DNA from: a virus
Lineage: Duplodnaviria > Heunggongvirae > Uroviricota > Caudoviricetes
IMG/VR virus record: IMGVR_UViG_2541047897_000003
DNA: 9,362 nt
Strand: one strand, 5' to 3'
Shown: positions 1,519 to 4,455 of the stretch, piece by piece
How positions within the stretch are numbered: the first letter of the stretch is position 1
Layout of the letters: each line of letters starts with the position of its first letter
Notes under the pieces: generated by a model
The model's database searches: none
Seen by the model: only the letters and a program-made list of their open reading frames with translations
What the model was told of the DNA's origin: nothing
Made by a program: the position numbers and the translations under genes

Positions 1519-2034
1519 TTATACGGCTTTTTTTACATCTTGTGGTTCTTGTGAAGGAGCTACAAAACCTTCCTGTTCATGAATACCATACTCTGACAAA
1601 ATCTCTTTGCGCGCATCTGCTGGTAAAGTTTCTAGCATTTGGGCTAGTTGTATGCACTCACGCGATACGCCGTGCAGAGATTGGATTTGAGTCTGATCAA
1701 AGATACTTGGCATTAGTGCTCCAAGTCCGCCTTTACTAAGTAGCTTTAATGCCCTCTGGATTTCCTCTGGTTCTAACTCTGCGACCAAAGCCATTAACAC
1801 AGAAGCTAACTTATAAGCTGGCTTATCGCTATCTAATAACTGCGCCCCTCCTAATTCTGCCTGAGTGGCATCAGGTAATGAGCTGATATGGTATTCATAA
1901 GCAACTCCCTTTACTCCTTTGATCTGTCTCTTTTTCCATCCCTCATTAGTTGCTTTGCGGCTAATACTACTTGCTGAAGACGGAAGACCAGCAACCCCTT
2001 GTAGCTCTTTAGCTGAAAACCATTCTTGTGTCAT
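1519..2034 (-). CDS. c: Prophage repressor c (immunity repressor), D108-like rather than Mu-like; N-terminal winged-helix DNA-binding domain shared with the transposase
   Basis: ORF track 1519..2037 (-). The likely start is the ATG at 2034-2032, preceded by GAGG ~7 nt upstream on the minus strand (the track starts at an upstream GTG). Position and orientation match Mu c. The N-terminus ([24 protein letters not shown]...[15 protein letters not shown]) parallels the N-terminus of the adjacent transposase. Confidence 0.8.
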
Positions 2035-2233
2035 CACAAACCTCGCTTTAAATACACTGTGTATTCAAAGAAACAAAAATATATTCATTTTAAAATCATC
2101 AAGATAGATGAAATTCAAACGAAATATTTGAATACATCATTGCATTGACAATGTATTCACACTAACATTGCTGCATACCTTGTCAGCTACCTTGCGGCGT
2201 AGCTGATGGCGTAGCTTGTGAGGATTGCATTTT
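2035..2233. promoter_or_regulatory. Divergent early/repressor promoter-operator region, overlapping the expected transposition enhancer; repeated TGTATTCA motifs
   Basis: 200-bp AT-rich interval between divergent c and ner. TGTATTCA at 2060-2067 and 2152-2159, its complement TGAATACA at 2129-2136, and a one-mismatch copy at 2080-2087. Perfect 15-bp palindrome AATACACTGTGTATT at 2051-2065. TTGACA at 2145-2150 is a candidate -35 for the rightward early promoter, but no good -10 was found. Confidence 0.55.
2182..2218. promoter_or_regulatory. Putative Ner operator: inverted repeat plus direct repeat just upstream of ner
   Basis: Inverted repeat TCAGCTAC (2183-2190) / GTAGCTGA (2199-2206) with an 8-bp spacer. 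Direct repeat GGCGTAGCT at 2197-2205 and 2208-2216, 11 bp apart (one helical turn). This is where Ner-type repressors are known to bind in Mu and D108. Confidence 0.4.
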
Positions 2234-2452
2234 ATGGCGATAAAGAAAAGTAAATGTGAAGACAAAAGCAGATACGACATTGTTGCTGATCTGCGCAAAA
2301 GAGGAAAAAGCCTAGCAGCTCTTGGTCGTGAGAACGGTCTCTCTATCTCTACGGTAAAAAATGCCTTGGATAAACCTTACCCTCGGGGTGAAAGAATTAT
2401 TGCCGATGCATTGGGAGTTGAGCCACGAGACCTCTGGCCTTCGAGGTATTGA
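2234..2452 (+). CDS. ner: Ner-like DNA-binding protein (negative regulator of early and repressor transcription; Ner/Nlp family)
   Basis: ORF track 2225..2452 starts at TTG. The likely start is the ATG at 2234, with GAGG at 2219-2222. The product (MAIKKSK...[58 protein letters not shown]) has the Ner/Nlp HTH signature and C-terminal WPSRY. Its stop overlaps the transposase start region. Confidence 0.8.
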
Positions 2453-2454
2453 AA

Positions 2455-4455
2455 ATGCAACCACAATGTAATGATTGGTTTTCTGCAAAGAAATTAGAAG
2501 GGCTGATAGGTCTTCCAAAATCCTCTAGCGCGATCTCTCGTAAAGCAAGGTTAGAACAGTGGGTGTTTCGACAGATACACGGGGTAAGAGGAGTAGCCTA
2601 TGAGTTTCATATCTCATCTTTACCAAAGGAAACGCAAGCTGCGTTATTGCTTAGACAAGGAGAGATTGAAACAAGCATGGGCCGTTTTGAAATCGCCCGC
2701 CCCACGCTGGAAGCCCACGATTATGATCGCGAGGCGCTGTGGAGCAAATGGGATAACGCCAGCGATTCCCAGCGCAGACTTGCTGAAAAATGGTTGCCTG
2801 CGGTTCAGGCCGCAGACGAAATGCTGAACCAGGGGATTTCAACAAAAACGGCTTTTGCGACCGTTGCAGGACATTACCAGGTCAGCGCATCCACTTTGCG
2901 TGACAAGTATTACCAGGTACAGAAGTTTGCGAAGCCTGACTGGGCGGCTGCTCTTGTTGATGGACGTGGTGCATCCCGTCGCAATGTTCACAAAAGTGAA
3001 TTTGACGAGGATGCCTGGCAGTTTCTGATTGCAGATTATCTGCGACCGGAAAAACCCGCCTTCCGCAAATGTTATGAGCGTCTGGAACTGGCAGCCCGCG
3101 AGCATGGCTGGAGTATTCCCTCCCGTGCCACGGCCTTTCGCCGGATTCAGCAACTGAACGAGGCAATGGTTGTTGCCTGCCGTGAAGGTGAACATGCACT
3201 GATGCATCTGATACCGGCACAACAACGAACTGTGGAACACCTGGACGCCATGCAGTGGATCAACGGCGACGGTTATCTGCATAACGTCTTTGTACGCTGG
3301 TTTAACGGTGATGTGATCCGCCCGAAAACATGGTTCTGGCAGGATGTGAAAACCCGAAAAATTCTGGGCTGGCGCTGCGATGTGAGCGAGAACATTGATT
3401 CAATTCGCCTCTCGTTCATGGATGTTGTGACTCGCTACGGTATCCCGGAGGATTTTCACATCACCATTGATAACACCCGTGGTGCTGCGAATAAATGGCT
3501 GACGGGAGGCGCGCCCAATCGCTACCGCTTTAAGGTAAAAGAGGACGATCCAAAAGGACTGTTTTTACTGATGGGGGCGAAAATGCACTGGACAAGCGTT
3601 GTTGCCGGTAAAGGCTGGGGCCAGGCAAAACCTGTTGAACGTGCTTTCGGTGTTGGTGGGCTTGAGGAATACGTTGATAAGCATCCGGCACTGGCTGGCG
3701 CATATACGGGGCCTAATCCGCAGGCAAAACCTGATAACTATGGCGACCGCGCTGTTGATGCAGAGCTGTTTCTGAAAACCCTTGCCGAAGGTGTGGCGAT
3801 GTTCAATGCCAGAACAGGCCGTGAAACAGAAATGTGCGGAGGCAAACTTTCGTTTGATGACGTTTTTGAGCGTGAATACGCCAGAACGATTGTGCGTAAG
3901 CCTACCGAAGAGCAAAAACGGATGCTGTTACTGCCTGCCGAGGCGGTGAACGTTTCACGTAAAGGCGAGTTCGCGCTTAAAGTTGGCGGCTCCCTTAAAG
4001 GTGCGAAAAACGTTTATTACAACATGGCGTTAATGAATGCCGGAGTGAAAAAAGTTGTGGTCAGATTTGATCCACAGCAGTTACACAGCACGGTTTATTG
4101 CTACACCCTGGACGGTCGGTTTATCTGTGAAGCGGAATGTCTGTCACCTGTTGCGTTTAATGATGCTGCGGCAGGCCGTGAATATCGCCGCCGCCAGAAA
4201 CAACTGAAATCTGCGACGAAAGCAGCGATTAAGGCACAGAAACAAATGGATGCACTGGAAGTGGCAGAGCTGCTGCCGCAGATAGCCGAACCTGAAGCAC
4301 CAGAATCACGAATTGTCGGCATTTTCCGGCCTTCCGGTAATATGGAACGGGTGAAGAATCAGGAGCGTGATGATGAATACGAAACTGAGCGTGATGAATA
4401 TCTGAATCATTCGCTGGATATTCTGGAACAGAACAGACGTAAAAAAGCCATTTAA
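2455..4455 (+). CDS. A: Mu-type DDE transposase A (MuA) with a D108-like N-terminal enhancer/operator-binding domain
   Basis: ORF track 2449..4455 (668 aa from TTG). The likely start is the ATG at 2455, with GAGG at 2443-2446. From about residue 65 onward ([12 protein letters not shown]...[38 protein letters not shown]...) it matches Mu transposase as I recall it. DDE catalytic contexts are visible ([31 protein letters not shown]). Confidence 0.95.

Follow-up and report, generated by a model that had tools for sequence, protein, structure and literature searches.

The stretch of DNA analyzed, hereafter referred to as the window (9,362 bp), opened with a porin gene on the minus strand (positions 1 to 1062), which is phoE-like (Escherichia coli) as judged from a reading of its translation. 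Prophage DNA began at position 1181 with TGTATTGATTCACTTGAAGTACG, and from there to approximately position 1611 the sequence shared 96.8% identity with the Mu left end. The c repressor gene (171 amino acids; 1519 to 2034, minus strand), which matches Pfam family PF02316 and is annotated as a repressor in phage PhiR68_1, was separated by a 199-bp intergenic region (2035 to 2233) from the divergent ner gene (72 amino acids; 2234 to 2452, plus strand), whose product matched Pfam HTH_35 (E value of 4e-25) and is annotated as Ner in the same phage. The gene for transposase A followed on the plus strand (2455 to 4455; PF02316, PF09039, PF02914, and PF09299), with B and the Mu early genes downstream of it. 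According to the open reading frames, the Pfam matches, and the annotation of PhiR68_1, the control region sits between leftward c and rightward ner-A-B, near a Mu-type left end; its GC content was 34%. By its sequence, the window is the left end of a Mu-type prophage.

The prophage insertion lay upstream of the porin gene, some 120 bp from its start, and other copies of the phage adjoined cyaY, fic, glnS, yehP, and further genes. Such varied chromosomal insertion sites are consistent with the near-random transposition of Mu. At the left end of the prophage, the terminal octamer TGTATTGA (1181 to 1188) was one mismatch away from the operator word described below, a likeness that is probably a coincidence, since Mu has the identical end and other operators.

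The stretch from approximately 1612 to 2617, comprising the part of c that encodes its N terminus, the intergenic region with ner, and some 55 codons at the start of A, was not closely matched by either Mu or D108. No DNA similarity to Mu was found across it, and D108 aligned with it across the intergenic region only, at 68% identity. By contrast with these two phages, the recently deposited phage PhiR68_1 was 99.8% identical to it. Of 5426 complete E. coli genomes, 15 had the module, at differing chromosomal positions, and it was also found in Salmonella. A literature search on the PhiR68 phages returned a single mention (PhiR68.2), in a work whose subject was not regulation. Judged from these alignments, the module formed by c, operator, ner, and the N terminus of A is unlike that of Mu, and D108 shows a distant likeness only.

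The initial annotation had described an octamer, TGTATTCA, repeated in both orientations in the intergenic region. A count on both strands bore out three exact copies, at 2060 to 2067 (plus strand), 2129 to 2136 (minus strand), and 2152 to 2159 (plus strand), and returned none anywhere else in the window, so the word does not occur at a similar density outside the region. In a word search made without any prior, the same octamer came out as the top word of the intergenic region. The repeat unit extended to a 10- to 12-mer, (A/G)TGTATTCA(A/C)A. A further copy with one mismatch, TGTATTTA at 2049 to 2056 (minus strand), which forms the left arm of a palindrome, had been missed. The list of sites was consequently revised, and four well-supported sites, named a, b, d, and e, now replace the earlier one.

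The conservation of these sites was followed in an alignment of ten copies of the window's immunity type, two of which had repressors only 85 to 88% identical to that of the window. One diverged copy (L090/L091; repressor 88% identical) had c and ner, and host-like genes (DUF350 and DUF1190) lay immediately beyond its c, approximately 490 bp away, as expected at a prophage end. Site a (TGTATTTAAA; 2047 to 2056, minus strand), which contains the one-mismatch octamer, was invariant in all ten copies and scored 15.3 bits with a position weight matrix (PWM). Site b (TGTATTCAAA; 2060 to 2069, plus strand), with an exact octamer, was the top PWM match (18.3 bits); it was kept in seven of the ten copies, the other three showing single transitions. 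Site d (TGTATTCAAA; 2127 to 2136, minus strand; 15.3 bits) contains an exact octamer as well and was kept in 8 of 10 copies, and site e (TGTATTCACA; 2152 to 2161, plus strand; 15.7 bits), also with an exact octamer, was identical in nine, reading GGTATTCACA in L090. The four sites thus scored between 15 and 18 bits and the next best match in the window 10.6 bits, a ranking that is partly circular because the PWM was built from the very sites that it ranks highest.

The fifth copy, site c (TATATTCATT; 2080 to 2089, plus strand), fared differently. The one-mismatch octamer that the initial annotation had placed at 2080 to 2087 was indeed present (TATATTCA), but the two relatives that had diverged most (L090 and L092) lacked it, reading ACTTTTAT instead, and it was changed in bR120. 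Site c also fell outside the top 20 matches of the PWM, which had been built without it. The copy at 2080 to 2087 is therefore doubtful as a real site.

The sites were arranged in two inverted pairs separated by approximately 57 bp of AT-rich DNA. Pair a/b (2047 to 2069) lay next to the start of c, with the heads of the two words 3 bp apart, and pair d/e (2127 to 2161) lay at the candidate divergent promoters (see below), with the heads 15 bp apart. Sites b and d together made up a perfect inverted repeat of 10 nucleotides. No cluster resembling O3 was detectable, and the clear sites numbered only four (four to five in all); Mu has more sites per operator.

To place this arrangement among its relatives, a scan with a four-sequence domain alignment, using one genome per species, was carried out, and it returned 80 loci. 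Only five of them were true c-ner-A prophages (from Volucribacter, Bisgaard taxon 45, Gallibacterium, Mannheimia, and an uncultured member of the Enterobacteriaceae). Most of the 80 had ner plus a c-like gene without the transposase and, not being prophages, were left out of the footprinting. Among loci L014 to L085 (e.g., L030, 1685 to 2683), a ner-like gene was found in divergent orientation to a single gene, or to two genes in tandem, for N domains of the Mu repressor type, and every locus returned from the many species of Photorhabdus, Xenorhabdus, Proteus, Morganella, and Arsenophonus carried a ner/c-like pair with no transposase core within 5 kb. Loci of this kind could represent a domesticated c/ner regulatory module.

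The most repeated word of each c-ner intergenic region was then determined, again with no prior. Mu, which served as the positive control, yielded CTTTT(C/T)AG, the published consensus of its repressor. The top word of D108 was TGATTTCA, with the variants TGATTTGA, TGATTCCA, and TGATTTAA; that of L011 (uncultured Enterobacteriaceae) was of the TGATTTGA type, and those of L010, L023, and L086 (Pasteurellaceae) were of the TGATTTAA type. No clear repeated word was found in the region of L009 (Volucribacter). In none of the other operator regions did the window's word occur, even when a mismatch was tolerated. The words of those regions were essentially absent from the window, those of Mu and D108 having no exact copy each in the window's region and one each when a mismatch was allowed. 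The view of the initial annotation that the motif is unlike the Mu operators was thus confirmed, with no exact CTTTTYAG in the window's region and none of the window's words in that of Mu.

The layout, for its part, was shared. In D108, L010, L011, L023, and L086, an inverted pair of words was found approximately 12 to 25 bp from the start of c, followed by an AT-rich spacer, by a second cluster some 75 to 117 bp in, and by a GCTAC/GTAGC inverted repeat before ner; Mu and L009 were the exceptions. D108, L010, L011, and L023 each had their own word at the offset that site b has from the start of c. L010, L023, L086, and L011 also resembled the window in the order c, operator, ner, and A, in the two clusters, and in the inverted pair beside the c start, but they differed from it in having their own words, more copies per cluster, and good matches to the integration host factor (IHF) consensus in the spacer.

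Mu resembled the window in the position of the repeats between divergent c and ner-A-B, in the two clusters of words with an AT-rich spacer, and in having a repressor and a transposase with homologous PF02316 winged-helix N domains. It differed in the word (CTTTT(C/T)AG(TAA) instead of TGTATTCA), in the DNA-binding domains, which were only 34 to 38% identical to those of the window (34% for c), and in the match to the IHF consensus, which was perfect in Mu and poor in the window. The likeness to D108 was closer, with the intergenic regions alignable base for base, the words at equal positions, a common core of the Ner repeat and common spacing to the ner start, and identities of 59% for the DNA-binding domain of c and 65% for Ner. 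However, c was only 40% identical overall to that of D108, and the helix motif was T-N-I-T-R in D108 compared with S-(S/A)-I-S-R in the window. The features of the Mu immunity group and those of the D108/SfMu group, whose word TGATTTCA had no exact copy here, were thus both missing. The immunity of SfMu is of the D108 type, with c 89% and Ner 98% identical to those of D108 (PMC4406740). Since SfMu, the other described relative, is D108-type, what the window carries on its Mu backbone is a third immunity module.

The proteins expected to recognize the words were compared next. The N-terminal 60 or so amino acids of c corresponded to a Mu-type winged-helix DNA-binding domain (PF02316, HTH_Tnp_Mu_1; E value of 2e-22), and the C terminus was Mu-like. 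This domain matched the structures 1TNS (MuA I-alpha) and 1QPM/1G4D (Mu repressor domain and its DNA complex) with E values of approximately 1e-7. An AF2 model of c gave a strand at residues 5 to 7, helices at 8 to 11 and 21 to 31, a beta-hairpin at 35 to 49, and a helix from residue 55 onward, which in the model is the element order of a winged helix. The pLDDT was 79 to 91 over the DNA-binding domain, with a mean of 62 for the full-length protein; given the poor quality of the model outside the N-terminal domain, its interpretation was confined to residues 1 to 60. A 134-amino-acid relative, P0012, showed an additional match to the phage integrase family PF00589, an unusual finding in a repressor of the Mu type.

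Transposase A, in turn, retained a full PF02316 match (E value of 1e-44), and its first 65 or so residues (2455 to 2650) formed an I-alpha-type domain. The remainder of A was nearly identical to A of Mu and D108, and the transposase core was 100% identical (tblastn). The N termini of c and A were 65% identical to each other over 60 amino acids (E value of 7e-26). In Mu, the I-alpha subdomain is a winged helix-turn-helix that binds the enhancer (PMC3362531). The words and the proteins varied together. Phages with the TGATTTnA word (D108, L010, L011, L023, and L086) had a helix before the wing that starts with (A/P)-(T/S)-N-(I/V)-(T/N)-R, whereas in the window this helix read A-S-S-I-S-R in c and S-S-A-I-S-R in A, and the window's word differed from the TGATTTnA family at positions 3 and 4, with TA in place of AT. 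Thus, the one type whose word has changed at positions 3 and 4 is also the one in which both proteins have changed at matching positions of the helix. That helix is the one said to read the major groove in the Mu repressor-DNA complex, reportedly from work by Wojciak and coworkers in 2001.

From the whole of these data we consider it quite probable that a Mu-type prophage with a third immunity specificity has its early control region at 2035 to 2233, where the four words, in two inverted pairs, would serve as sites for repressor and transposase. The proposal of the initial annotation that the repeats are operator sites common to the repressor and the N domain of the transposase, with a specificity other than that of Mu, is supported in that the in silico evidence agrees with it.

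It may be asked whether the transposase uses the words at all, as they could bind the repressor only and so constitute an operator without an enhancer. The identity of the c and A domains is 65%, well short of complete, and several helix positions differ between them. Nevertheless, A keeps the complete PF02316 domain and has in common with c the type-specific S-x-I-S-R, and its domain is nearer to that of its own c (66%) than to that of any other phage, a shared pattern that is hard to explain unless both proteins are held to a common DNA target. Moreover, the N domains of the Mu repressor and transposase share their sites (PMC3145075); these two domains were 43% identical in our comparison. 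A function restricted to the repressor is therefore unlikely.

The repeats might also have arisen by chance or from base composition, the promoter region being AT-rich, or they might be sites for host factors such as IHF, Fis, or H-NS. The rarity that the initial annotation had claimed for the octamer (about one occurrence per 65 kb per strand) held on the scale of the window, where 0.32 copies were expected and none of 200 dinucleotide shuffles reached three, but it weakened on the local scale. Thus, when the AT-rich intergenic region alone (196 bp) was shuffled in the same way, some 8-mer reached three exact copies in 89 of 5000 shuffles (1.8%; P of approximately 0.018), so composition explains the enrichment in part, although not wholly. 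Similarly, the five copies counted with one mismatch allowed were within the range of the shuffles (mean of the best null word, 3.3; maximum, 6). Against this stands the distribution of the word in the full PhiR68_1 genome (37,128 bp), with three copies, every one in the control region, and above all its conservation. Compared pairwise with the window, the sites of the other copies diverged by 0 to 5%, while the AT-rich DNA between them diverged by 12 to 28%; the third codon positions of c, ner, and A diverged by 4 to 6% in the close copies and by 14 to 25% in the distant ones. Variable columns made up 6 of 40 in sites a, b, d, and e and 45 of 88 elsewhere in 2038 to 2165 (Fisher's P of 7e-5), a choice of sites that was partly post hoc, having been made once site c had been seen to be unconserved; with all five sites included, P was 0.0027. 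When four blocks of 10 bp were placed at random 20,000 times, only 8 placements were as conserved as a, b, d, and e. As for host factors, Mu and D108 have the same host, E. coli, and different words, those of D108 at aligned positions, and the covariation of the word with the helix of a phage protein contradicts such an origin, since the site of a host factor would stay the same from one immunity type to another. Both chance and host factors are thus very unlikely sources of the repeats.

The same alignment revealed that the DNA between the sites (2038 to 2165) had diverged by 12.5 to 21.6% in copies whose third codon positions were 4 to 6% apart, that is, two to four times more than these near-neutral positions. 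The half on the ner side (2166 to 2233) had diverged by only 1.5 to 4.4% in the close copies. The fast spacers hint at selection or recombination acting on an operator scaffold, and mutational bias is also a possible cause.

The inverted arrangement of the words raised a further alternative, in which the pairs would act as RNA or DNA hairpins, for instance in the leader transcript of c. The perfect 15-bp palindrome AATACACTGTGTATT reported by the initial annotation at 2051 to 2065 was found in the window, with perfect arms of 7 nucleotides around a central T, and it extended to 12-nucleotide arms that were 92% complementary (2046 to 2057 and 2059 to 2070). As a functional unit, however, it was rejected. 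Its center (2057 to 2059) was hypervariable among the copies, reading CTG, CCA, CGA, TCA, TGG, TAG, TTA, or TGC, while the 10-nucleotide arms were conserved, so the perfection of the palindrome is particular to the window copy and what is conserved is a pair of inverted words whose 3-bp spacer is free to vary. Conserved arms around a variable 3-nucleotide center are also what a stem-loop would present; besides, the natural variants of the arms are transitions that still allow G-U pairs on the minus-strand RNA, and the fold z-scores ranged from -1.5 to -2.6. Yet the predicted hairpins were weak (-5 to -10 kcal/mol), being matched or beaten by 5 to 17 of 200 shuffles, and no double-sided compensatory changes were observed among the aligned copies. 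The d/e arms, moreover, flank 15 bp that hold conserved promoter-like hexamers, one and the same word serves both pairs, and the relatives also have single or tandem copies. A role as hairpins is accordingly highly improbable. A search for known RNA families gave no Rfam match, only subthreshold snoRNA noise.

Regarding the promoters, the sigma-70 scan predicted no strong rightward promoter. The alignment with D108 pointed, with low confidence, to a candidate early promoter, Pe, with the structure TTGCAT-17 bp-TAACAT (2140 to 2168, plus strand), which aligned with TTGATT-17-TACATT of D108. It had 7 of 12 consensus matches, below the threshold of the scan; its hexamers were found in all ten copies, with TTGCAT invariant and the key positions of TA[A/G]CAT kept. 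A leftward candidate for the c promoter, TTGTCA-17 bp-AATATT (2123 to 2151, minus strand), also of low confidence, was the sole match of the scan (9 of 12), and its hexamers were kept only in part among the copies. The two candidates would stand back to back, with the -35 hexamers between sites d and e. The TTGACA at 2145 to 2150, which on the opposite strand is the TTGTCA of the leftward match, was discarded as a rightward -35 box, as no acceptable -10 box was found at 16 to 18 bp and the hexamer varied in three of the ten copies.

A weak IHF-like element, AATCATCAAGATA (2094 to 2106, plus strand), was located in the spacer between the clusters, with two mismatches to WATCAANNNNTTR. At the equivalent spacer, L090 and L092 showed one mismatch, as did D108, and Mu, L023, and L086 showed none.

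Just upstream of ner, an inverted repeat, TCAGCTAC-N8-GTAGCTGA (2183 to 2206), was found with the features of a Ner operator, together with a third copy of GGCGTAGCT at 2208 to 2216. The whole of 2183 to 2216 was nearly invariant in the ten copies. The inverted repeat aligned with CCGTGAGCTAC-N8-GTAGCTCACGG of D108, with the same GCTAC...GTAGC core and 8-bp spacer; this D108 repeat is reported to be the mapped D108 Ner site in work by Tolias and DuBow. The direct repetition of GGCGTAGCT (2196 to 2204 and 2208 to 2216), with a spacing of 12 bp, was invariant in the ten copies, so that the window has a third half-site in comparison with the D108 Ner operator, which consists of two inverted arms only. 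Ner most likely acts at the repeat at 2183 to 2206 and the third GTAGCT copy. That the octamer words themselves are Ner sites instead of c/A sites deserves hardly any credence, for although Ner is likewise a small DNA-binding repressor acting in this intergenic region, the separate GCTAC-N8-GTAGC repeat is what aligns with D108, and Ner, 65% identical in the two phages, goes with a repeat core that is common to both and an octamer word that is not.

Taking the words as sites for both c and A, the following model can be proposed. By homology with Mu, pairs a/b and d/e would most likely be O1-like and O2-like clusters, in which each word would dock one winged-helix domain, with helix 21-31 of c, or its counterpart in A, reading the major groove and the beta-hairpin wing contacting the minor groove next to it. 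In a lysogen, repressor oligomers would fill the two clusters and probably loop or bend the DNA between them. They would shut the rightward early promoter of ner-A-B, given that site e falls within the spacer of Pe and site d abuts its -35 box, and they would autoregulate the leftward promoter of c. If both promoters are real, each site would lie in the spacer of one of them, and a single repressor assembly could block both. During lytic growth, these words would serve the transposase, through its homologous I-alpha domain, as a transposition enhancer, in competition with the repressor, and Ner would act separately, at the GCTAC-N8-GTAGC repeat (2183 to 2216). Binding, looping, promoter occlusion, enhancer activity, and the involvement of IHF are all inferred from Mu.

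The relationship between the two proteins suggests how this specificity may have arisen. The domains of c (1843 to 2034, minus strand) and A (2455 to 2650, plus strand) were 66% identical to each other and at most 64% identical to any orthologue, while c and A of D108 paired with c and A of L011, respectively (75 to 76%). That c and A are mutually closest points to gene conversion, or else to a recent duplication, inside this immunity type. We tentatively put forward, as a possibility rather than as the expected outcome, that the window represents a third heteroimmune class in Muvirus, in which the word swap TG-AT-TTCA/TG-TA-TTCA was matched by a change from T-N-I-T to S-S/A-I-S in the helices of both proteins, with concerted evolution, whether through gene conversion or through a recent duplication, moving the specificities of operator, repressor, and transposase together.

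The view of how Mu-type control regions work is unchanged by these results, which are an expected addition to the well-known operator-enhancer system of Mu and D108. They provide a testable operator/enhancer map for an uncharacterized Mu-type immunity class that includes the isolated phage PhiR68_1. Because the module sits on a Mu backbone, it constitutes a natural specificity swap, and Mu, D108, and the window type would offer three pairs of word and recognition helix on one winged-helix fold. Such a set may be useful for dissecting how the domain reads DNA, for predicting cross-immunity among Mu-like prophages, and for the design of orthogonal mini-Mu tools for transposition and repression.
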